Part shown: positions 2,543 through 17,171 of the stretch, one piece after another
Numbering within the stretch: position 1 is the stretch's first letter
Layout: every line of letters begins with the position of its first letter
Assembly (NCBI GenBank): GCA_030917065.1
Contig: JAUPVL010000042.1
Span: 2,419-26,418 of the forward strand
Length of the DNA stretch: 24,000 bases
Source: Patescibacteria group bacterium
GTDB lineage: Bacteria > Patescibacteriota > Saccharimonadia > CAILAD01 > BJGX01
Direction of reading: 5' to 3'
Position numbers and translations under genes: made by a program
The notes under the pieces: model-generated
Database searches by the model: none
Told to the model about the DNA's origin: nothing
What the model saw: only the letters and a program-made list of their open reading frames with translations

Positions 2543-5392
2543 ATGAAGAGTCGTAAAAAAATAGTTGTTTTTGATGGCCATGCCTTGGTACACCGAGGTT
2601 ATCATGCTATACCATATCTTACTACTAAAGACGGTACACCCACCAACGCTGTCTATGGCTTTACCATGATGATGCTACTGGCTTTGCGTGAGATACGACC
2701 AGACTACGCTATAGTAGCGTGGGACGCCCCTGGTAAGACTTTTCGACACGATCAGTTCAAAGACTATAAGGCTACACGTGTAAAGGCTCCAGACGAGCTC
2801 TACGCCCAAATGCCACTCACCAAGGACGTGGTCAGTGCATTCAATATTCCACTCATAGAGTCTGCTGGCTATGAGGCAGATGACATCATTGGTACACTGA
2901 CCAAAAACTACGAAAAATCACACGATGTAGTAGTGGTTACCGGCGATCTGGACGAATTACAGCTAGTCAGTGATACTGTCAGTGTATACACTATGCGCAA
3001 AGGCTTCACTGATACATTTATGTACGATCCAGCTGCAGTACACGAGCGCTACGGCGTTACCCCTGAAGAATTCATAGTATACAAAGCACTAAAAGGGGAT
3101 AGTAGTGACAATATACCAGGTGTTGCTGGCATAGGCGACAAAGGAGCGACAGAGCTAGTCGAGAAATACAAAACACTAGATAATATGTACAAACATCTAG
3201 ATGAGATCAAGCCAGCCCTAGCCAAGAAGCTAGAGGCCGGCAAAGACAATGCATATCTGAGTCTAGAACTATCTACTATCAAAAGAGATGTAGATATTGA
3301 ATTTAAGCTCCAAGATGCAGCACTGCATGAATATGATAGAAAAAAAGTCTTTGATCTTTTTCACAAGCTAGAATTCAAAAGCTTGCTATCGAAGTTACCC
3401 AATCAGTCATTTACAGAGGAACAGCAGCTCTCTACCCAAGAAGCAGTAGAGGAGATAGAGACTGCCACTAAGAGTCGAGACCATCTGAAAAAAGCCAAAT
3501 ATCATACTGTGGATTCTGACAAGTCTCTCGACACACTAGTGGCAAAACTAAATAAACAATCAGTGTTTTCGATAGATACCGAGACAACTAGCACCGACGT
3601 GATGAAAGCACATCTGGTGGGTATTTCTGTGTGCTTCGAGGAGTGTGAAGCTTACTACATACCAGTCGGTCACACATTGAACGACAAAGATGACAGTCAT
3701 TACATTGATGACAATAAGAAGACTCAAGCTTCAATTTTTGAAAAAGATGCATCTGAGTATGAGAATCTTAGCCTAGCCGACGGTCAATTGTCCAGACAAA
3801 AAGTACTAGATGCTTTAAGGCCCGTACTAGAAAGCACCAAGATAGGCAAGATCGGCCACAATCTCAAATATGATTATCAGATATTTGCAAACAACGGTGT
3901 GCATATGGAAAATATTGTATTTGATACGATGGTCGCAGCATTTCTTATCAATCCTATCGGTAGAGCACAGACTTTATCAGAGCTAGCATACGCGGAGTTG
4001 GGTATATCGATGATAGATATAGAAGAACTAATAGGAAAAAAAGGTAAGAGCCAAGGATCTTTTAACGAGGTGGAGGTATCAAAGGCCACTCAGTATGCCG
4101 CCGAAGATGCCGATGTTGCATTGCGCTTGTACAATAAACTGACTCAAGCGCTCGAACATGAACCTACTGGTACCAAAAAACTCGCCAATATGGCTCGGCA
4201 ATTGGAGTGGCCACTGATAGAAGTATTGGGTGATATGGAGTTGACTGGCGTCACTCTGGACGTGGCATATCTAGGCAAACTAGCCAAAGAGTTTGGTTCA
4301 AAACTGGATAAAATAAAATCAGCCATCTACAAACATGCTGGACGTGAGTTCAATATTAGTTCTACCCAACAGCTCAAAGTGATACTTTTTGATGAGCTCA
4401 AGATAGACACTACTGGTCTCAAAAAGATCAAAACAGGTGTGAGCACTGCAGCAGGAGAGCTAGAGAAGCTCAAAGGTAAGCACCCTATAGTAGATGAGTT
4501 GTTTGAGTATCGAGAACTTACCAAGCTCATGAGCACCTACGTCGAAGCTTTGCCTAACTATGTAGCAAGCGACGGAAAGATACACACTAGCTACAACCAG
4601 ACTATCGCTCAAACTGGACGTCTCAATAGCACCAATCCCAATCTACAAAACATACCCGTACGAACAGTAGAGGGCAAACGCATTCGCAGAGCCTTTGTAG
4701 TAGATGAAAGGAATGTATTTGTATCCGCAGACTACAGCCAGATAGAGCTCAGACTAGCTGCCGATCTTGCAGGTGACAAGCCGATGATCAAGGCATTCAA
4801 AGACGGTATGGACATACATACGCTGACAAGTGCTGAGATGTTTGGTATCAAACCCAGTGAAGTTACACCTGAGCAGCGCTATGCCGCCAAGGCCATCAAC
4901 TTTGGTGTGTTATACGGCATGAACACCCATGGTCTGGCAGTAGCTACAGGGTTTAGTTACGAGCAGTCCAAAGAATTTATAGATAGGTATTTTGAGTTGC
5001 GAAAGGGTGTGGCTGACTACATAGCTAGCATCAAAAAGATGGCACACGACAAAGGCTACACTGAGACTATCTTTGGCAGAAGAAGACCTTGCCCGGACGT
5101 GCGTTCGAGCAATTTTATAGTACGTTCGGCGGCTGAACGAGCAGCTGTCAATATGCCTTTGCAAGGTACCGCTGCCGATATGATGAAGCTAGCGATGATT
5201 CGGATACACAAGAAGCTACCCAAAGATGCCAAGTTGATATTACAAATCCATGATGAATTGGTGGTAGAATGTCCAAAAGCTTTGTCCAAAGAAGTTGCCA
5301 AGATTATGCAAACTGAGATGGTAGGGGTACATAAGTTCAAAGTGCCGATAGAAGTAGATATATCCTTCGGAGACAACTGGGGAGAGCTGTAG
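2543..5392 (+). CDS. polA: DNA polymerase I (5' nuclease + 3'-5' exo-like + family A polymerase domains)
   Basis: 5' nuclease motifs are present (VVFDGHALVHRGYHA, GDSSDNIPGVAGIGDKGA). Pol A motif A is DYSQIELR, motif B is RYAAKAINFGVLYGM and motif C is QIHDELVVE. I prefer ATG 2543 (MKSRKKIVVFDG...) over the track start 2513 because TGcTATAAT at 2525-2533 lies inside the longer ORF. Confidence 0.95.
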   Translation: MKSRKKIVVFDGHALVHRGYHAIPYLTTKDGTPTNAVYGFTMMMLLALREIRPDYAIVAWDAPGKTFRHDQFKDYKATRVKAPDELYAQMPLTKDVVSAFNIPLIESAGYEADDIIGTLTKNYEKSHDVVVVTGDLDELQLVSDTVSVYTMRKGFTDTFMYDPAAVHERYGVTPEEFIVYKALKGDSSDNIPGVAGIGDKGATELVEKYKTLDNMYKHLDEIKPALAKKLEAGKDNAYLSLELSTIKRDVDIEFKLQDAALHEYDRKKVFDLFHKLEFKSLLSKLPNQSFTEEQQLSTQEAVEEIETATKSRDHLKKAKYHTVDSDKSLDTLVAKLNKQSVFSIDTETTSTDVMKAHLVGISVCFEECEAYYIPVGHTLNDKDDSHYIDDNKKTQASIFEKDASEYENLSLADGQLSRQKVLDALRPVLESTKIGKIGHNLKYDYQIFANNGVHMENIVFDTMVAAFLINPIGRAQTLSELAYAELGISMIDIEELIGKKGKSQGSFNEVEVSKATQYAAEDADVALRLYNKLTQALEHEPTGTKKLANMARQLEWPLIEVLGDMELTGVTLDVAYLGKLAKEFGSKLDKIKSAIYKHAGREFNISSTQQLKVILFDELKIDTTGLKKIKTGVSTAAGELEKLKGKHPIVDELFEYRELTKLMSTYVEALPNYVASDGKIHTSYNQTIAQTGRLNSTNPNLQNIPVRTVEGKRIRRAFVVDERNVFVSADYSQIELRLAADLAGDKPMIKAFKDGMDIHTLTSAEMFGIKPSEVTPEQRYAAKAINFGVLYGMNTHGLAVATGFSYEQSKEFIDRYFELRKGVADYIASIKKMAHDKGYTETIFGRRRPCPDVRSSNFIVRSAAERAAVNMPLQGTAADMMKLAMIRIHKKLPKDAKLILQIHDELVVECPKALSKEVAKIMQTEMVGVHKFKVPIEVDISFGDNWGEL

Positions 5393-5436: not shown

Positions 5437-5453
5437 ATATAGGCGACTTGCGG

Positions 5454-5651
5454 CTAGTCACTCAAGTGGGAGATATCACCCCACCAAAAGAATATTCGAA
5501 CTACAAAACAGGCAAAGACGACTATTAGAAATGGGATGGCGTATATTGGCTTTGCATTGAACAGTACTAGTACAAACATCGCCAAGGCGGATAGGATAGA
5601 TATACCCATTAGGCTTCTGTCAATCCATACGGGTCGGTCGGCAATATCCAT
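5454..5651 (-). CDS. Small two-helix membrane protein (65 aa), hypothetical
   Basis: Good SD (AGGAG, 6-nt spacing) precedes the ATG on the minus strand. There are two hydrophobic segments (ISILSALAMFVLVLF, AIPFLIVVFACFVVRIFFWW). A TTGCAT-16-TATAAT promoter-like sequence lies upstream on the minus strand and a terminator downstream. Confidence 0.6.
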   Translation of the reverse strand: MDIADRPVWIDRSLMGISILSALAMFVLVLFNAKPIYAIPFLIVVFACFVVRIFFWWGDISHLSD

Positions 5652-8441: not shown

Positions 8442-8470
8442 AGGATAGCACAAACACTATAAACTGTCAA
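8442..8470 (-). promoter_or_regulatory. Near-consensus sigma-70 promoter for the 78-aa ORF
   Basis: On the minus strand: TTGACA (8470-8465), a 17-nt spacer ending in TGc, then TATCCT (8447-8442). Confidence 0.5.
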
Positions 8471-8526
8471 TACTATTTAACACTTTTTATGATGAGTATC
8501 ATACAGGAGTAGGCTATAATAGTATT

Positions 8527-9414
8527 ATGCCAGAATTACCAGAAGTAGAAACAGTACGTGCCGGACTTGCCGAGATACTAGTAGATCAACGTATCAAAAG
8601 TGTTAGTACAGACTGGCCCAAAAGCTTTCCGAACGATCCCAAGATAGTGCGAGACAAAGTAGTCGAGTCCACTATCTTATCTGTAGATAGACGCGGAAAG
8701 GCGCTTATCATCCCACTTAGTGGTGGGTATAGTTTACTTATACACCTCAAGATGACCGGACAGTTGGTATATAGAGCTCGCAACTCAGCCGAGGGGTTTG
8801 GCGGCGGTCACCCTACAGACAGCCTTATACACAAGCTACCAGATCGGTCTACTAGAGTGATATTTGAGCTCACTGATGGTACGTTGTTCTTCAACGATCA
8901 ACGTAAGTTTGGATATGTGAAGCTAGAAAAGTCCAAAGATATATACAAGACCAATGCTTTTTTGCGCAAATTAGGACCAGAGCCACTAACTGACGACTAT
9001 ACCTTTGAGATGTTCAAGACAGCACTCATGAAAAGACAGAATACTACTATCAAGGCTGCCATACTTGATCAGACAGTTCTTGCAGGGGTAGGCAATATCT
9101 ATGCTGATGAAGGACTGTTCGCAGCTCGCATACACCCCAGCACCAGAGTGGGCGATATTAGTACTATCAAGCTCAAACGACTGTACAACGCACTTAGAGA
9201 GGTGATGAAGCTCAGTATTGAGCTAGGAGGCAGTTCAGATAGAAACTATGTGGATGCCAAGGGCAACAAAGGCAGTTATCTCAAATTTGCCAAAGTTTTT
9301 CGTCGCGAAAAACAACCTTGTATCAATTGTAAGACTGAAATCAAAAAGATACGTGTGGCGGGCCGAGGAACCCATGTTTGTCCACATTGTCAAAAGCTAA
9401 CAACAAAAAAATAA
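8527..9414 (+). CDS. mutM: Formamidopyrimidine-DNA glycosylase (Fpg/MutM)
   Basis: Canonical N-terminus MPELPEVETV, an H2TH region, and a C-terminal zinc finger CINCKTEIKKIRVAGRGTHVCPHCQK. Confidence 0.9.
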   Translation: MPELPEVETVRAGLAEILVDQRIKSVSTDWPKSFPNDPKIVRDKVVESTILSVDRRGKALIIPLSGGYSLLIHLKMTGQLVYRARNSAEGFGGGHPTDSLIHKLPDRSTRVIFELTDGTLFFNDQRKFGYVKLEKSKDIYKTNAFLRKLGPEPLTDDYTFEMFKTALMKRQNTTIKAAILDQTVLAGVGNIYADEGLFAARIHPSTRVGDISTIKLKRLYNALREVMKLSIELGGSSDRNYVDAKGNKGSYLKFAKVFRREKQPCINCKTEIKKIRVAGRGTHVCPHCQKLTTKK

Positions 9415-10628: not shown

Positions 10629-10856
10629 ATGGATAAAGATTTGGAGCGCACACTTGATGCCGAAGAACGGGCGGGATGTCTTGGTGTTTTGCAGTTTGTT
10701 GCCGCTATTGTTGCAACGGGTTGTGTACTTTTCGCCGATATCTGGTGGCTGACTCGTGTGGCTTATGTAGTTATTGCTATTGGTATGTGGCTGGGTGCAT
10801 GGCGCAATCTCACGAATCCATGGCGACTTATAGATCGTAAGGATAACAATGACTGA
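10629..10856 (+). CDS. Small two-helix membrane protein (75 aa), hypothetical
   Basis: SD AAGGAG with 7-nt spacing precedes ATG 10629. Two hydrophobic helices (CLGVLQFVAAIVATGCVLFA, VAYVVIAIGMWLGAW). Its stop overlaps the next start (ATGACTGA, 10849-10856), implying translational coupling. Confidence 0.55.
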   Translation: MDKDLERTLDAEERAGCLGVLQFVAAIVATGCVLFADIWWLTRVAYVVIAIGMWLGAWRNLTNPWRLIDRKDNND

Positions 10857-11226
10857 TCAAGAAAACCCGTCTTTTGATGATTGGGCAACTCGAGTGAAGC
10901 CCAGTGAGTACGCAGAGTATCTTGGAGGACACTTCCGTCGACCTTGGATGTCAAAAGTCGACCTAGCTGACCGAGCATTAATTGCATCTTTTCTAGAAAT
11001 GCAGATGCCTGATGGTCGTACTATCGCACATTGGTTGGATGAATTACCTGAGGCGGAGGACGAAATACGCCTCTTGCGGGCCGAGAACGAAGAAGCCCGC
11101 CATGCCATCAATGAGGCGCTTGGGTGTGCGTTCATTCATCACATGTGCGAATGCGGTGATACTGTGAATTGCGGTGTATGCCACATGGTTGCTCGGCTAC
11201 AGGCGTCGTCAGGGAGACAGTCCTAG
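10849..11226 (+). CDS. Hypothetical 125-aa protein with a C-terminal Cys/His cluster (putative Zn site)
   Basis: It overlaps the upstream ORF by 8 nt. It contains the acidic helix ELPEAEDEIRLLRAENEEARHAINEA followed by HHMCECGDTVNCGVCH. No family recognised. Confidence 0.5.
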   Translation: MTDQENPSFDDWATRVKPSEYAEYLGGHFRRPWMSKVDLADRALIASFLEMQMPDGRTIAHWLDELPEAEDEIRLLRAENEEARHAINEALGCAFIHHMCECGDTVNCGVCHMVARLQASSGRQS

Positions 11227-11954: not shown

Positions 11955-12716
11955 ATGCAAATTATAGAACTAGCAACCAAACTCCAATCTGTTGGGCTTA
12001 GCGAAAAGCAAGCTCGAGTTTATGTTGCTGCACTGTTTTTGGGCCCTAGTGCCGTACAAAAGATCGCCGAGCAAGCCGAGATCAATCGAGCCACTACCTA
12101 TGTGATACTGGACGAACTGGCTGCTATGGGGCTAGTAAGCGAATCTACAGAAGGTAAGAAGACAGTATTTGTGGCCGAGCCACCTCAGTCGATTGAGCGC
12201 TACCTAGATGCACAGAACAAGCAGATATCTGATAAGCAAGACGAACTCAAGAACATCTTGCCTAGCCTCAAAGAAGTGTCGAGATCATCTGACGGAGTAG
12301 AGACTCCAGTAGTAAGGTTTTATAAGGGTATTGAGGGCTTAAGATCTAAGACTAGTATTTATGCTAGAAAAGCAAAACCAAAGAGTATGGTGTATGGATT
12401 TTCAAATTTCGATCAGGTATTAAAAGAATTTCCAGATATACTGCAATCTGGACCTAGTCTTAGGAGTAGAAAAAAAATATCGAGTAAATTAATCTATTCA
12501 CTTAGCGATGGCGAAATCAGATCTGACAAAAAACTGTTAAGAGAAACGAGAAAGATAGATCAACCTATCAGTGCAGACATCAATATATATGAAAATGCAG
12601 TTGTAATATCTACATACAAAGGCAAAGACTCCGTAGGTGTAGCTATCGAGAGCAAAGATATAGCTAGTGCCATGAAGCAATTATTTGAGATGGCCTGGAA
12701 AAATAGTAACAAATAG
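11955..12716 (+). CDS. TrmB-family (winged-helix) transcriptional regulator
   Basis: N-terminus LQSVGLSEKQARVYVAALFLGPSAVQKIAEQAEINRATTYVILDELAAMGLVSE is the TrmB-type HTH, followed by a coiled-coil (QNKQISDKQDELKNILPSL) and a C-terminal domain. I prefer ATG 11955 over track start 11907, which would overlap the promoter. Confidence 0.7.
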   Translation: MQIIELATKLQSVGLSEKQARVYVAALFLGPSAVQKIAEQAEINRATTYVILDELAAMGLVSESTEGKKTVFVAEPPQSIERYLDAQNKQISDKQDELKNILPSLKEVSRSSDGVETPVVRFYKGIEGLRSKTSIYARKAKPKSMVYGFSNFDQVLKEFPDILQSGPSLRSRKKISSKLIYSLSDGEIRSDKKLLRETRKIDQPISADINIYENAVVISTYKGKDSVGVAIESKDIASAMKQLFEMAWKNSNK

Positions 12717-12729
12717 TTGTTGCAATATA

Positions 12730-12758
12730 TTGACAAAATGTAAGTATTTTGGTATACT
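12730..12758 (+). promoter_or_regulatory. Near-consensus promoter with no gene behind it
   Basis: TTGACA (12730-12735), a 17-nt spacer ending in TGg, then TATACT (12753-12758). It starts 14 nt after the TrmB-like stop. Confidence 0.6.
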
Positions 12759-13058
12759 TCTCTTTGTCAGGCCAACGTACCATGTTTGAGTGATAGCTAA
12801 GACTCAGTCGAAAGAACGTCCAATGCTGCTTAAAACAGAGTGCAGAGGTCGCCGAGAAGTCCTCGGCATAGACACGAGCAATGGAGAGATACCGTGGACG
12901 CTGCCTTCTCCACCACCTGAACATTTCCGGCTCCGCCGGCGCAACCAACACATTTCTGACTGAACCCACGCGACGCAAGTCGTAGACACGAGCGAAAGCT
13001 CGCAACACCAAACGGTTCTGTCGGGAACTAACTGGACCAGTCATTGGTCCTTCGTCTA

Positions 13059-13095
13059 GGGCTCGGTGCCCCCGTAACTTGAGGGCACCGAGCCC
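13059..13095 (+). repeat. 13-bp hairpin related to hairpin b of the 3' T modules
   Basis: gggctcggtgccc (13059-13071) pairs with gggcaccgagccc (13083-13095). It shares the GGCYCG...CGRGCCC frame with 15324-15349 and 15930-15953. CTACA follows twice (13099-13103 and 13113-13117). Confidence 0.55.
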
Positions 13096-13116
13096 AGACT
13101 ACACTTCGATAACTAC

Positions 13117-13141
13117 AACCAGGCATTATGCCTGGTTTTTT
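13117..13141 (+). terminator. Intrinsic terminator ending the candidate ncRNA
   Basis: aaccaggca (13117-13125) pairs with tgcctggtt (13129-13137) and runs into a T6 tract (13136-13141). Confidence 0.75.
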
Positions 13142-13258
13142 CGTACAAAATGATACAAATAGCCAATTTAATGTAATTATTAATATATCTATGACACTAA
13201 ATACACGTGTTTTAACAGGTATAGAGCTATATAAATACAAATAAACTGACAAAAACTA

Positions 13259-13287
13259 TTGACAAGTTTTAATATATTTGCTATACT
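13259..13287 (+). promoter_or_regulatory. Near-consensus promoter of the second island unit
   Basis: TTGACA (13259-13264), a 17-nt spacer ending in TGc, then TATACT (13282-13287), inside an AT-rich spacer (13142-13330). Confidence 0.6.
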
Positions 13288-13339
13288 ACCAATCAGTTCT
13301 TTGAAGTGCCAATTTCCAAAACCTTTATAGGGGGATTCT

Positions 13340-13531
13340 GTGGCTAGCACGTTCACTCGCAAGTGTGGCATGGCCACTCGCACTCCTTCTGCCTTGACTT
13401 GGGCAGTCGTGGTCGAGTGCGGCAACGGGGAGGTGCACTACTTCGAACGTAGTGCTTGCCACCCCGACGCCGTCGTGGCGTACATCCAGCGGGAGTTTCC
13501 CGACTGTGACTACGTCATGGCTCTGGCCTAA
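13340..13531 (+). CDS. Hypothetical 63-aa protein with high-GC codon usage
   Basis: GTG start preceded by GGGGGA (13330-13335). GC3 is 47/63 (75%) with only 2 A-ending codons, a coding signature typical of a high-GC donor. No family recognised. An alternative ATG start lies at 13370 without an SD. Confidence 0.5.
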   Translation: MASTFTRKCGMATRTPSALTWAVVVECGNGEVHYFERSACHPDAVVAYIQREFPDCDYVMALA

Positions 13532-14441
13532 CGACTTCGGATCGGGGGCTTGATAAGTCCTGGCAACAGAAGCCTGTAGAGTGAGCAAAAAGAAGCTCTA
13601 TAGACACTATCCGAGTATGCTCTCGACAAAAGCCGCCTGGTAGTAGGCATTGAAGCCCGAGCAATCGAGCAACTACCAACCTCGTCTGATATATCAGACG
13701 AGGAGCAAGTCTGCTGGTAAAGTGCCAGCACTGATGAGCCCGAACTATCTAGTTCAACTAGGGCGAAACTGCACTTTGTAAATACTAATTCTGTGGATGT
13801 GGCCAGTGCTACATATTAAAACATACCAATAGCAGATTGGCCGCCCACAGAAATGGTAAATACAATATCCGAACCTTGTCATTATGAGCAGTAGCTTTCG
13901 AACCGAGTATATAGGTATATATATTTAGTTCGAAAGCTATGTGCTTTCAAAAAGATAGTAAGGTCACAGCAAATGGCGGGACTGCTGCCTCACTGATGAC
14001 CTGCCTGTAGTATGCGCGTTTCCCGACACGATCGGGCCGATGCATCTACGGGCGAAATCATGAACTGATATATATGAGAGTATATATCAGCTTCAACTGC
14101 TTGGGTGTCGCAGCTCTTCGTGAAAGCGGATGAGCGCCACCCGAGCAGGATATCGCTGCCACAACAATCTGGTCGGAGAGGCATCAACTTCGACGCACTG
14201 CTCAAAACGGCGTCAAGTCGGGTGAGAGTGGTGTTCTGCGTACGTCCTTCGCAGACAGTAGGGAGGTAATAATTGATCCGAGCCCGTGCAGAATCCTGCG
14301 CCGCAAACAACGCGACTCTGATAAGAGTGGGTAAAAAAAAGTCGGATCCGGGGACCCTAGTGGCCAATGATGATGTTCCTTCCCCGGTGCACGAGTGGGT
14401 GAAACCACGAGTGTTCATGAAAGGGAACGTCAAGCTCGCGG

Positions 14442-14484
14442 CAGCTCGTCGCTCTCCGTCAGTAGACGGATTGAGCGCAGCTGC
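14442..14484. repeat. Hairpin module H, copy 1 (43 nt)
   Basis: Sequence cagctcgtcgctctcc-gtcagtagac-gga-ttgagcgcagctgc. It folds as cagct/agctg + cgctc/gagcg + tccgtc/gacgga with loop agta. Confidence 0.7.
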
Positions 14485-15005
14485 CCATATTGCGGAACCC
14501 GTCCACGACCTTGCCAGTCGCCTGGTAAGATAGTAGATACGTTGTTCTGCGAGGTCTGAGTCAATCGCCACCCAAAAAGGTAACGTGGGGTTGAAACACC
14601 CCTGGCGGTAAGATCCCGAAAGAGCTGACGTAATGCTCGAAAAAATGTGCTAACATAGGCCTTTTTCCTTACGATAAAATTCAGATAGTCGTGAGGTCGT
14701 CCACCCCTTTGGGGTCCCACTAGTTGGGGCTCCGGAGGGTCTCAACAAGAGAGCTTGAATTATCAAGCTTTGCTGCTGAGACCCTAAAAAGTCTCGAACC
14801 TTGTCATTTGATGTTAAGATTTTGCTGGATGGAGCATAGAAGTGCAGATGTAATCCAGCTACTAGGGTGTCAGTGCGCACATAAGACCCCCTTCTGAGAA
14901 GTGACTAGAGTGGACTGCCCAAACGCAGACAGCTAGACAACTTTGTCAACTCAGATTAAACCAAAAAAAGCCGATAACGCTCCAATAATTCGGCCCATAT
15001 CGCGA

Positions 15006-15048
15006 CAGCTCGTCGCTCTCCAGAGTCATCTGGATCGAGCGCAGCTGC
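15006..15048. repeat. Hairpin module H, copy 2 (43 nt)
   Basis: Sequence cagctcgtcgctctcc-agagtcatct-gga-tcgagcgcagctgc. The outer arms match copy 1 except for one position. The inner stem is tccaga/tctgga, so three base pairs changed on both strands. It lies about 65 nt upstream of ATG 15114. Confidence 0.7.
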
Positions 15049-15113
15049 TAAATCCTTGAGTTTCAATCCCGCGACTCAAGCTCGTACCACACAACACCAC
15101 TGAAGGAGGTGAA

Positions 15114-15311
15114 ATGGACGAGACCAACGACCTCGACGGCATGATCCAGGCGGCGGATCTCATGCTCACGGTCATGATGGCCGAGGGCATGACCCCCGCA
15201 GAGATCTGCCTGGAGTTCTTCGCGATGGGCCACGAGAGTGGCCACATCTGCGCACAGGCGCACGAAGAGCCCCTCGAGGACGACCCCAAGGTGTCCGCCG
15301 GCTACCTGTAA
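15114..15311 (+). CDS. Hypothetical acidic 65-aa protein with very high GC3
   Basis: A perfect SD AAGGAGGTGA (15103-15112) precedes ATG 15114. GC3 is 60/65 (92%). Local GC is 36/60 at 15121-15180. No family recognised. Confidence 0.65.
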   Translation: MDETNDLDGMIQAADLMLTVMMAEGMTPAEICLEFFAMGHESGHICAQAHEEPLEDDPKVSAGYL

Positions 15312-15360
15312 GTGCCGGCACCCGGCCCGAATCTTCACAGATTCGGGCCCCTACCAAAGA
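15288..15360 (+). repeat. 3' module T, copy 1 (two hairpins + CTACC motifs)
   Basis: Sequence aaggtgtccgccggctacctgtaagtgccggcacccggcccgaatcttcacagattcgggcccctaccaaaga. Hairpin a is gccggc (15297-15302)/gccggc (15314-15319), with the ORF stop TAA in its loop. Hairpin b is ggcccgaatct (15324-15334)/agattcgggcc (15339-15349). CTACC occurs at 15302-15306 and 15351-15355. Confidence 0.7.
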
Positions 15361-15432
15361 AGGTTACAATATAATCTCTTTTGGTCGGGAAAGTCCCGAC
15401 TCACTCAGTGAGTAGCACCTTGGAGCAATCAA

Positions 15433-15885
15433 ATGGAAGATTTCAAAGAGTTGTTCGATCGGTTTCTGACCGTCGTGCGTGTGTCCAACGACATCCCTGA
15501 CGAGATGACTATCGAGGAGTTTCTGAGCAAGAAGTGGAACTTCTGCGACCCAAGCCCTTGCAACATGAGAGTGGAGGTCACTTGGGATGGCAGCTACTCC
15601 CTGTGGAGCCTTCGCTTCGACAGCACGGGTCGAGTCAACGATGAGCGCCTCTGGATCCGTCGCGACTGCACGCATGAGGAGGCCATCACCCAGGCCATCG
15701 GCCAAAATATGGGCGGCAACGTTGTCGAAATCTTGACCAAAGTCATCCCAGACATTCAGATGACCTCTGGGACTGGTGACGATTCGGAGGAGTTCTGGAT
15801 CGTTTGGGAGTGGTACAGCCCAATTTTCACCGGGAAGGAGGACAGTGGTCTGCAGGACGGAGATTGGCAAGAGGCCTTGCTCTAG
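15433..15885 (+). CDS. Hypothetical Trp-rich acidic 150-aa protein
   Basis: SD GGAG (15422-15425) with 7-nt spacing precedes ATG 15433. Third positions look mostly G/C by eye (not counted). Two tight 5' UTR hairpins lie at 15384-15400 and 15400-15412. It runs in the same direction as the flanking modules. The 187-aa antisense ORF 15364..15927 is treated as a shadow ORF. Confidence 0.6.
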   Translation: MEDFKELFDRFLTVVRVSNDIPDEMTIEEFLSKKWNFCDPSPCNMRVEVTWDGSYSLWSLRFDSTGRVNDERLWIRRDCTHEEAITQAIGQNMGGNVVEILTKVIPDIQMTSGTGDDSEEFWIVWEWYSPIFTGKEDSGLQDGDWQEALL

Positions 15886-15893
15886 AGAGTGCA

Positions 15894-15964
15894 AAGGTGA
15901 CCGCCGGCTACCTGTAAATGCCGGCACTCGGCTCGAGTCTTTTGACTCGAGCCCCTACCAAAGA
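15894..15964 (+). repeat. 3' module T, copy 2
   Basis: Sequence aaggtgaccgccggctacctgtaaatgccggcactcggctcgagtcttttgactcgagcccctaccaaaga. Hairpin a is conserved. Hairpin b is ggctcgagtc (15930-15939)/gactcgagcc (15944-15953), with two compensatory pair changes relative to copy 1. CTACC occurs at 15908-15912 and 15955-15959. Confidence 0.7.
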
Positions 15965-16007
15965 TATCAAGCACATTGATGCATTTGGTAAGAAATCAAT
16001 AATATAC

Positions 16008-16036
16008 TTGACATAAGAAGTTTAGTTTGGTATAAT
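16008..16036 (+). promoter_or_regulatory. Consensus promoter of the DHH-family gene
   Basis: TTGACA (16008-16013), a 17-nt spacer ending in TGg, then TATAAT (16031-16036). Confidence 0.6.
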
Positions 16037-16061
16037 ACTGCATTAATTAGACAAATTAGTT

Positions 16062-17171
16062 ATGCAACAAGAATTGACCCCCAAACAACAAACTGTAGAG
16101 CTTATCAAACAAGCCAACCACATACTGCTCGTTACTGGCAAAAACCCCAATAACGACCAGCTTAGTGCTATGGTAGCTCTGGAACTTATCCTGAAACGTG
16201 CAGGCAAACAAGTGAGTGCGATAGTCACTAGTGAACTACCCAAGGTAGCCAAGATACTAGACACCCACACCATTAGTAGAGATCTGACCGGTATAAGGGA
16301 TTTTGTAGTACGACTAGACACCACCAATGTAGAAGTAGACAAACTACGCTATGAGGTCAATGATAACAATATCGAAATAATAGTATCACCGTTTTCAGGC
16401 AATTTTACTTCCCAAGATGCTAGTTTTGACTACGGAGCATACAAATTTGACTTAGTGATAGTACTAGGAGTGAGCCAGATAGCACGTATAGACTCTATAC
16501 TCGAGCAAAACCCTACAATATTTGATGGGTTGCACTTGGTAAATATCGATTGCCATAGAAGCAACGAACAGTACGGTAGTGTGAACTTTGTAGACGCCGG
16601 TGCTAGTAGTGTTTGTGAGATGCTAGTAGGTATCATCGAGTCAGTTGCTCAAGGCATGATTGATTATCATGTAGCAACAGCATTACTTGCCGGTATCATG
16701 GGAGCAACTCAGGGATTTACAAATCAAAACACCTCTGCCAAGAGTCTTACTATAGCTGCCCAGATGATGAGTGGTGGTGCCAAGCAACAAGATATAGTCA
16801 ATACATTGTTTGCAGGGCAATCAAATACTGCCAACACTGAGAGCAATAGAGCTGATCGCAATAATGCCAAGACAGAGCTCAAATCACATCAATCAAAAAA
16901 TATCCGCAAAGATGAGCCAAAAGCACAAGAAACTATTGCCCAAAAACTAGCCAAACAAGGTATAGAGCTCACCGAAGAAGGTGTCGTAGATGCCAGGACA
17001 GGCAAGGTACTAGAAGAAGAAGTATTGGATGATGACTTGGACAAAATAAACGATGGGGATGAGCAGAGCTCAAAAAAGTTCAAAAATCCGCAAGCGGATC
17101 AGTCGCACCAGGAAACTTCAAGGGCAAATACACATCAGCAGGCATCCAAGGGCTCTAAAAAAAACCGATAA
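16062..17171 (+). CDS. NrnA-like DHH-domain protein with degenerate catalytic motifs and a low-complexity C-terminal tail
   Basis: It is collinear with B. subtilis NrnA (recalled from memory), but key residues are replaced. ILLVTGKNPNNDQLSAM stands where NrnA has HRHVRPDPDAYGS. VIVLGVSQ replaces VIVCDTAN, NIDCHRSN replaces KIDHHPNE, and GIMGATQGF replaces GIVGDTGRF. There is no DHHA1 GGGH domain; about 130 residues of K/Q/E/N-rich tail take its place. Confidence 0.6.
   Translation: MQQELTPKQQTVELIKQANHILLVTGKNPNNDQLSAMVALELILKRAGKQVSAIVTSELPKVAKILDTHTISRDLTGIRDFVVRLDTTNVEVDKLRYEVNDNNIEIIVSPFSGNFTSQDASFDYGAYKFDLVIVLGVSQIARIDSILEQNPTIFDGLHLVNIDCHRSNEQYGSVNFVDAGASSVCEMLVGIIESVAQGMIDYHVATALLAGIMGATQGFTNQNTSAKSLTIAAQMMSGGAKQQDIVNTLFAGQSNTANTESNRADRNNAKTELKSHQSKNIRKDEPKAQETIAQKLAKQGIELTEEGVVDARTGKVLEEEVLDDDLDKINDGDEQSSKKFKNPQADQSHQETSRANTHQQASKGSKKNR

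Follow-up and report, generated by a model that had tools for sequence, protein, structure and literature searches.

A repeated, structure-conserved RNA hairpin in a predicted hammerhead-containing leader of Saccharibacteria

Processing hairpins of ribonuclease III (RNase III), such as the R1.1-type sites of phage T7 and the stems of ribosomal RNA (rRNA) operons, are stem-loops of about two helical turns with small bulges or internal loops, and RNase III-type enzymes accept helices of such length with small bulges. Here we describe a hairpin of similar build, termed H, which occurs as two 43-nucleotide (nt) copies (H1 and H2) in a 24,000-nt stretch of a Candidatus Saccharibacteria chromosome (assembly GCA_030917065.1, contig JAUPVL010000042.1, positions 2,419 to 26,418; hereafter the window). 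Its helix measures from 19 base pairs (bp) in the window to 28 bp in two relatives (L013 and L018; L numbers denote loci of related assemblies), in line with the ~20 bp or more, with small bulges, of an RNase III site. Like those sites, H recurs along what is predicted to be one long transcript, between RNA segments and before cistrons, and its shape is conserved over its sequence. The likeness is one of shape and arrangement, judged from general descriptions of such sites; unlike them, H possesses an unusually invariant core, GCUCU..GAU(N)GAGC.

Sequence comparison suggests that a subgroup of Saccharibacteria possesses a modular non-coding leader RNA, not described before, and that H forms one of its helices. 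This leader resembles GOLLD, ROOL, OLE and raiA-type RNAs in being long, GC-enriched, multi-helix, intergenic in an AT-richer genome, covarying and lineage-restricted; unlike them it is modular, varies in length by species, carries a predicted self-cleaving ribozyme at its 5′ side and is linked to transfer-messenger RNA (tmRNA). The array of small open reading frames (ORFs) that follows in the window recalls integron attC and Vibrio VCR arrays, with promoterless small ORFs that each precede a conserved, strongly palindromic element of ~110–140 nt and with cassettes that vary among close relatives, the inter-ORF elements being compared by description. Unlike integron arrays, no integrase is found nearby, and H contains neither GTTRRRY nor RYYYAAC and lies inside the non-coding leader rather than after cassette ORFs or at cassette boundaries. 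A literature search returned no description of H or of the leader RNA.

Structure, conservation and strand of H

H lies in a 3.3-kb gene-poor gap between the genes of a TrmB-like regulator and a DHH-family protein, where GC content is 50–60% against 42% for the genome. Both copies, at 14442–14484 and 15006–15048, are as given in the preliminary description: the H1 core reads CAGCTCGTCGCTCTCC-GTC-agta-GAC-GGATTGAGCGCAGCTGC and that of H2 CAGCTCGTCGCTCTCC-AGA-gtca-TCT-GGATCGAGCGCAGCTGC, with an identical 16-nt 5′ arm, a single T/C difference in the 3′ arm, inside a bulge, and all three apical pairs changed on both strands. The repeat proved longer than first noted, by 6 nt at the 5′ side (TCGCGR) and by 1–2 nt at each stem end. 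Each arm occurs exactly twice in the window at ≤3 mismatches (expected 0.07; two or more in 0 of 100 shuffles). RNAfold assigns H1 and H2 a common fold (−31.0 and −23.6 kcal/mol), composed of a basal stem (7 bp in H1, GGCAGCU/AGCUGCC; 5 bp in H2), a C bulge, a single G-C pair, a U bulge, the helix CGCUC/GAGCG and a 6-bp upper stem, UCCNNN/NNNGGA, with a 2-nt 3′ bulge and a 4-nt loop. Since the three pairs of a swapped 10-nt tip would match by chance in ~5% of cases ((6/16)^3), the window alone, without relatives, is only suggestive of conservation of the fold.

Related loci were collected through a genome scan with the DHH protein (L011–L020, all from Candidatus Saccharibacteria assemblies), a metagenome pattern scan (L022), P0002, a homologue of the 65-amino-acid (aa) ORF downstream of H2 (ORF65; L030), and TrmB homologues (L035, L038, L043–L045); exact-protein look-ups for ORF65 returned the same strain only, at 100% identity. 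Searches with structure models R1 and R2 covered ~250 kb of window and relatives. Further copies were found at the syntenic locus in 10 related genomes, in canonical form in L011 and L022 (two copies each), L015 (one) and L035 (one, H2-type), and as divergent yet clearly homologous hairpins at the same place in L019, L017, L013, L018, L020 and L030. Orthologues of H1 were recognised in L011, L015, L022, L030, L013, L017, L018 and L020. The most distant H-bearing locus with a TrmB-like gene at hand encodes a protein ~62% identical to that of the window. H is absent from L038, L012, L016 and L043–L045, and is restricted to a subclade.

A further hairpin in L030 (11494–11548, + strand), GAGUU-cguc-UCGAUCCAUC-gcaa-GGUGGAUCGA-gc-AACUC, reached 24 bits under the first H model. 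Its position, flanked by an ORF and rpsO, is outside the locus, and it could be a distant relative or a chance match.

Folded singly, 13 hairpins from nine genomes reach one architecture independently; L030 and L020 give variants. A plain MAFFT alignment of the divergent hairpins (A4) was structurally inconsistent and was replaced by a hand structural alignment (A5; 12 copies from nine genomes, with N as gap). In A5, 99.1% of cells are paired, against 25–40% in slid registers, and changes on both sides are seen in 11 of 23 pairs (32 cells), counts that lean towards structure in an alignment hand-fitted to the fold. The covariation score was 0.406 against 0.133 for shuffles, a value reached by none of 500 shuffles. 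Folds obtained independently from single sequences, together with the slid-register control, speak for a real covariation signal, and stem changes in the further copies are compensatory instead of non-compensatory.

Six apical stems (GUC/GAC, AGA/UCU, UGG/CCA, UUGA/UCAA, UCAACG/UGUUGA and UUAGCA/UGUUAA) and seven loops (agua, ugcc, guca, guaa, guaaa, gcaa and gaga) were recorded, with 6-nt loops in divergent members. The core is invariant in all 12 aligned copies. Lower stems are swapped for other pairs in L019, L017, L013 and L018; the same applies to the middle and apical stems of L030, where the basal stem, C bulge and 2-nt 3′ bulge are kept. The three compensatory changes of the preliminary description hold in so far as the apical pairs do differ on both strands, but they do not look like three separate events in this genome. 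Two tips recur among relatives, H1 carrying GUC in the window and L015 and AGA in L011 and L022, and GUC/GAC and AGA/UCU look like two alternative tips exchanged between copies, by block swap or gene conversion. A short flanking motif, cccatat..., had also been described as shared by the two copies; before H2 it reads cttatat in L011 and ctcatac in L035, other sequence follows H1 in L011, L015 and L022, and its presence at both copies is probably due to chance.

All 11 G.U cells in A5 fall on the + strand, the substitutions that make them in relatives including A to G in the basal stem and C to U in the UCC of L015. The structure model gives 38.6 bits on the + strand versus 14.7 on the minus strand, and upstream of H a hammerhead and a rightward-facing consensus sigma-70 promoter lie on the + strand. 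In L011, L015 and L022, in-frame stops or frame breaks interrupt all ORFs that overlap H, whichever the strand; a protein-coding reading, through an 86-aa ORF on the + strand or 193-, 96- and 87-aa ORFs on the minus strand, was rejected, and the region is therefore non-coding. The evidence supports a fold formed by RNA read from the + strand. Selection on the fold, first proposed for either RNA or single-stranded DNA, is indicated because covariation exceeds that of shuffles, six apical stems occur, G.U pairs are confined to the + strand and overlapping ORFs are broken, with the + strand G.U pairs pointing to RNA. H thus combines compensatory pairs (in a hand-fitted alignment), a single strand and non-coding status, the marks of a conserved structured RNA element.

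Comparison with known element classes was negative. H is not an intrinsic terminator: no U-tract follows (H1 is followed by CCAUAUUG, H2 by UAAAUCC) and a terminator scan was silent at both copies. Nor is it a dispersed repeat of the kind formed by repetitive extragenic palindromes (REP), miniature inverted-repeat transposable elements or insertion sequence (IS) ends of IS200-IS605, as R1 and R2 found copies only at the syntenic locus in the ~250 kb searched; the metagenome pattern scan yielded one true contig, also syntenic, and eight chance matches in high-GC DNA. No TnpA/RAYT transposase gene is present in the window. The two copies, 564 nt apart, form no array of clustered regularly interspaced short palindromic repeats, which takes three or more units with regular spacers of 25–50 nt, and are not tandem as in the ~36-nt type III toxin–antitoxin repeats that stand directly before a toxin endoribonuclease gene, and the downstream ORFs have no Pfam match. 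Rfam 15 gave no match at gathering score or at E up to 5 over H, and none over the surrounding RNA except the sub-threshold hammerhead. A K-turn reading of the bulge was rejected, there being no tandem G.A pairs. With regard to a phage origin, blastn of 13600–16100 against 50,697 phage records gave no match, and a pattern scan of viral contigs gave zero.

The predicted leader transcript and its setting

In a motif map of all loci the order of elements is conserved: promoter, small poorly conserved ORF, motif M1, hammerhead, block C, H, block B and tmRNA (Table 1). A terminator scan found no + strand terminator between 13137 and 15926.

Table 1. Features of the H locus; positions refer to the window unless a locus is named
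Feature	Position	Strand	Description
Promoter	13259..13287	+	Sigma-70-type, TTGACA-17-TATACT; conserved across relatives; presumed start of the long transcript
First small ORF, 63 aa	13340..13531	+	Only in close relatives L011 and L035; unrelated small ORFs at this place in other species
Motif M1, CCUGGCAACAGAAG	13559..13572	+	Preceded by a G-run; 14-mer recurs inside tmRNA of relatives
Hammerhead ribozyme, type III	13704..13773	+	Cleavage predicted after C13711
Hammerhead orthologues	L011 ~4990-5060; L035 ~8750-8830; L015 ~4750-4820; L030 ~5005-5062; L038 ~8915-8970		
Hammerhead orthologues (continued)	L019 4476-4535; L017 ~5445-5505; L018 ~4570-4625; L013 3850-3904; L044 ~8930-8985		
Block C core, CGACACGATCGGGCCGATG	14024..14042	+	Conserved in L011, L035, L015, L038, L019, L017, L018 and L013
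H0	14100..14145	+	Weaker third H-type hairpin, CUUGGGUG-uc-GC-a-GCUC-UUCG-ugaaag-CGGA-u-GAGC-GC-CACCCGAG
Conserved 3′ domain	14200..14439	+	Three-way junction and long hairpin (GUUCCUU..GGGUgaaaCCAC..AAGGGAAC), both 5′ of H1
H1	14440..14485	+	GGCAGCU-c-G-u-CGCUC-UCCGUC-agua-GACGGA-uu-GAGCG-C-AGCUGCC; final helix of the conserved 3′ domain; R2 38.6 bits
Block B, GGAGGGTCTCAAC, and its long hairpin	14702..14811	+	In relatives ~180 nt upstream of tmRNA or before ORF cassettes
H2	15004..15049	+	Second H copy, apical stem AGA/UCU, in the 5′ untranslated region of the 65-aa ORF; R2 35.6 bits
H′	15055..15080	+	Second hairpin of the ORF65 leader, CUUGAGU-uucaaucccgcg-ACUCAAG; loop CAAUCC invariant, stem covaries
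ORF65, 65 aa	15114..15311	+	Motif GHESGHICA; at this locus in the 6 genomes with canonical H
Structured inter-ORF module	15288..15425	+	Closing stem and five hairpins, z = −7.5; again at 15894-15990, and after every ORF cassette in relatives

The hammerhead shows the catalytic core of its class (CUGAUGA, GAAA and GUC), with three covarying stems and stem III open, as in type III. It occupies one position in at least 11 Saccharibacteria loci, and 10 orthologues keep an intact CUGAUGA..GAAA core while stems I, II and III covary. Scores against Rfam RF00008 were 29.8 bits for the window (E 0.0011), 33.5 for L019 (E 5.1e-05) and 45.0 for L013 (E 3e-8), so that all tested copies (29.8–45.0 bits) fall below the gathering score of 48.5; as a sequence prediction, the hammerhead is regarded as genuine despite this. 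Cleavage is predicted to separate the RNA of the upstream small ORF from the H-containing RNA. A literature search found no report of a hammerhead in the leader of a tmRNA-linked Saccharibacteria locus. A stable hairpin stands directly 5′ of the hammerhead. A second candidate, CUGAUGA...GAAA at 13992–14056, was rejected, as its core is not directly adjoined by stem II and L015 lacks the motif.

M1 recurs after the first small ORF and inside tmRNA in L015 (4521 and 6461) and L038 (8733 and 10550), and was also seen in L030 (4820); the sharing with tmRNA could reflect a common protein site or a remnant of tmRNA duplication. A switch in which M1 pairs with hammerhead stem I was considered and rejected, given that stem I covaries and M1 is invariant. 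Between hammerhead and block C, a near-perfect palindrome (13892–13939) with 22-nt arms (UAGCUUUCGAACCGAGUAUAUA / UAUAUAUUUAGUUCGAAAGCUA) is conserved in both L011 and L035; at the corresponding place in L038 stands a hairpin whose sequence is unrelated. Similar hairpins with AT-rich tips stand at 13680–13703 and 14065–14090.

Further downstream, H0 shares the GCUCU..GAU-GAGC core with a bulge of 1 nt. Its R2 scores are low in the window (12.9 bits; E 0.03 with filters off), L011 (17.7) and L035 (14.4), and its outer stem covaries in L011 (alignment A1). For the 240-nt 3′ domain, minimum free energy folds agree in the window, L015 and L030 (z = −4.1, −2.3 and −3.0, respectively), with compensatory changes in L030.

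A tmRNA ends the series in L013, L015, L017, L018, L019, L020, L038 and the distant L043–L045; within the TrmB–DHH gap of relatives it is often accompanied by tRNA-Lys and other transfer RNAs (tRNAs). Counterparts of the gap (12716–16061) in the window, L011, L022, L030 and L035 hold no tmRNA, and ORF65 and further small ORFs stand there instead. No tRNA or tmRNA was found in the 24-kb window, and BLAST of the window with the tmRNAs of L015 and L038 recovered only the 14–15-nt M1 motif; the tmRNA of the window lineage must be located elsewhere or be very divergent. Because no second strict-consensus promoter (TTGACA, 16–18 nt, TATA[AC]T) was found between the 13259-type promoter and tmRNA in L013, L015, L017, L018, L019 or L038, co-transcription of leader and tmRNA is suggested. 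A minimal form is seen in L044, with a hammerhead ~170 nt upstream of tmRNA and 3′ of a 110-aa ORF that has a GHxxGHxCA motif as in ORF65. This small ORF (8466–8798) ends in ..GYAIGFQAGHFDGHFCAEG, resembling the GHESGHICAQAH motif of ORF65, which itself stands 3′ of the leader; the locus and this family of small proteins may be long-standing partners.

ORF65 has almost no homologues and no Pfam family. H2 ends 65 nt before its ATG at 15114, as the preliminary description had it, but the expectation that copies consistently precede small ORFs fails, for only H2 does so, in four genomes. H2 was found only in the window, L011, L035 and L022, where H′ follows 5–6 nt later, then a Shine-Dalgarno sequence and ORF65; RNAalifold on these four genomes shows both-side changes in four pairs of H′. 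L015 and L030 carry ORF65 without H2, their leader being filled by block B and a GUCGGGA..CCCGA hairpin, which makes H2 a lineage-specific copy of the H module, duplicated into the leader of an mRNA. It was copied with exact module boundaries, from TCGYGR to GCC, and is intact in four genomes at 46–66% ORF65 protein identity to the window.

The number and identity of cassette ORFs vary among close relatives, with two in the window and four in L022. Inter-ORF modules of ~110–140 nt consist of a GCCGGC hairpin, a GC-rich hairpin, CCAACCAAAG...CUUUUGGUYGGG, GGGAAAGUCCC and a closing stem AAGGUG/CACCUU, and occur in L022 (985–1080, 1533–1640, 2340–2400 and 2775–2840), L015 (6121–6220, 7260–7330 and 7900–7930) and L030 (6178–6290). 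The final module before the DHH promoter has another end, TTTGGTAAG in place of TTTGGTCGGG.

Elsewhere, ORFs of the window encode RpoD, PolA, an ABC transporter, Fpg, HolA, S20, the TrmB-like regulator, the DHH-family protein, TruB, PNPase and UDG. Scattered among these housekeeping genes are small ORFs of 50–63% GC (genome 42%) at 2183–2494 (−), 10629–10856 (+), 10849–11226 (+), 13340–13531 (+) and 15114–15885 (+). None matched a Pfam family, and tblastn of 2183–2494 and 10849–11226 against related loci found no homologue; a high-GC donor may have been the source of these small ORFs. A separate candidate RNA of ~380 nt (12766–13145, +) has its own consensus promoter (12730–12758) and a terminator (13117–13137) with a T-run, folds with z = −5.9, has no Rfam match and is partly conserved in L011 and L035; a similarly placed unit is present in L044. 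The TrmB–DHH gap ranges in relatives from 0.7 kb (L016, nearly empty) to 5.6 kb. Three independent assemblies, L040, L041 and L042 (TrmB homologues P0011, P0013 and P0015) stop within ~1 kb 3′ of the TrmB-like gene, contig ends that probably fit a repeat-rich or strain-variable region in natural populations.

Candidate functions of H

At a probability of about one half, we favour the reading that H, in a long + strand transcript of a Saccharibacteria-specific locus, is a discrete, cis-acting RNA stem-loop module by which a trans-acting factor recognises, processes or stabilises the RNA. From the structure, conservation, strand, non-coding status and context of H we infer this single transcript, the factor and the role in processing or stability. 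The transcript would begin at the 13259 promoter, be cut by the hammerhead after C13711 and run on through block C, H0, the 3′ domain, H1, block B, H2, H′ and the small-ORF cassettes, in whose place relatives have tmRNA. Three H-type hairpins (H0, H1 and H2) fall in this one predicted RNA and share an internal feature, namely a GCUC/GAGC helix, U-A and C-G pairs, a bulge of 1–2 nt on the 3′ strand and single-base bulges on the 5′ strand; the other pairs of the 19–28-bp stem and the loop are free to vary. The shared feature would be the recognition site for one trans-acting factor, most likely a double-strand-RNA-binding protein or an RNase III-type nuclease, which would process or protect RNA at H-type hairpins. 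H1 would act inside the non-coding leader, and H2 would bring the ORF65 mRNA under H1-type control, the factor defining or stabilising the 5′ terminus of that mRNA and portions of the leader released by the hammerhead. Such a site is proposed because the bulge-flanking core is invariant, the hairpin occurs three times per transcript and the module was duplicated with exact boundaries. Retention of H2 in L035, despite the loss of H1 and the 3′ domain, argues that the H module may work on its own.

Several observations weigh against this reading, beginning with the hand-fitting of A5. L038 and the distant L043–L045 keep hammerhead and tmRNA yet have no H, so that the core function of the locus does not depend on it, and L035 is without H1 and the entire 3′ domain. 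The conserved middle sequence is missing in L030 and the conserved basal sequence in L019, L017, L013 and L018. Only the shape is therefore universal, which would also fit a purely architectural helix of a large, autonomously folding non-coding RNA, extending from hammerhead to block B (~1.1 kb in the window) and acting with no trans factor, in which H0, H1 and H2 are alike by internal duplication. The surrounding RNA is indeed conserved and well folded, with covarying helices, and in L013, L018 and L019 conservation runs on past both sides of H. However, H2 stands outside the large domain, in an mRNA leader, with the full module and all bulges kept in four genomes; its survival in L035 is equally at odds with a strut, and the invariant bulge-flanking core in 12 copies exceeds what a strut needs. 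We consider this alternative rather unlikely, though it deserves serious weight.

Transcription could also be the target, with H as a put-, nut- or EAR-like antitermination or attenuation hairpin that lets polymerase read through the leader and the inter-ORF hairpins. The transcript must cross very stable hairpin clusters (z = −7.5), and H2 with H′ forms a two-hairpin unit of ~75 nt just upstream of the cassette array. The boxA consensus, YGCUCUUUAACAA, acts single-stranded, beside a boxB hairpin; its first six bases match the 5′ strand CGCUCU of H, which is all of a nut/boxA site that is present and is paired within the stem. Module hairpins have no U-tracts and are not clear terminators, H1 and H0 have no H′ partner and no Rfam antitermination family matched, all of which makes this explanation improbable. 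A site acting in DNA, for a recombinase or transposase (attC-, REP- or IS200-end-like), with direct copies bounding an exchangeable segment, is judged quite improbable and marginally more so. Such a site would agree with the end of similarity among relatives directly 3′ of H1 and 5′ of H2, the lack in L011 of window 14488–14824, which starts just after H1, the H2-type tip on H1 of L011 and L022, suggesting exchange between copies, and the variable cassette-like array. Stronger evidence speaks against it: the locus contains no recombinase or transposase gene; H is not dispersed, being only syntenic in the ~250 kb of relatives, with one syntenic metagenome match and no viral match; the L035 deletion (14170–14860) does not stop at H; H is orthologous across species with TrmB-like proteins ~62% identical and forms part of a covarying RNA domain next to a ribozyme; and a GTTRRRY-type core is lacking, and confinement of G.T pairs to one strand is what RNA would be expected to show. 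A recent neutral duplication with chance pairing in the tip, which the ~5% probability computed from the window alone would allow, is hardly credible, as cross-species covariation and the invariant core contradict it and H2 is intact in four genomes at 46–66% ORF65 identity.

Returning to H as a cis-acting recognition module, a wider proposal may be built on it, possible but in our view somewhat unlikely. The segment from 13704 to ~14811 would represent a novel class of large non-coding RNA, modular in build and processed by a ribozyme, which in ancestral Saccharibacteria shared a single promoter and transcript with tmRNA. A dedicated protein would dock at each of the repeated H-type hairpins, and their duplication before the 65-aa ORF would couple the variable small-protein cassette array to that ribonucleoprotein control.

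Meaning for Saccharibacteria

H is a real, structure-conserved RNA element, and its function, for which we can offer a constrained proposal, would lie in the control of the transcript that carries it. Saccharibacteria are ultra-small epibiotic bacteria with reduced genomes, in which long conserved non-coding stretches are unexpected and likely to be important. The locus is undescribed: a strong promoter on one side and tmRNA or, in the window lineage, a variable small-ORF array on the other enclose a covarying hammerhead and a set of conserved helices, among them the repeated H. More novel than H is this locus as a whole, a modular, tmRNA-linked leader, predicted to be ribozyme-processed, with a variable small-ORF array. 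A new RNA family can be founded on the alignment and models of H. Should H serve in protein recognition or processing, it would provide a handle on the maturation and control of tmRNA-linked transcripts and small-protein cassettes, as well as a natural, testable cellular role for a bacterial hammerhead; release of a tmRNA precursor from an upstream small-ORF mRNA would, if true, be a new biological role for that ribozyme.

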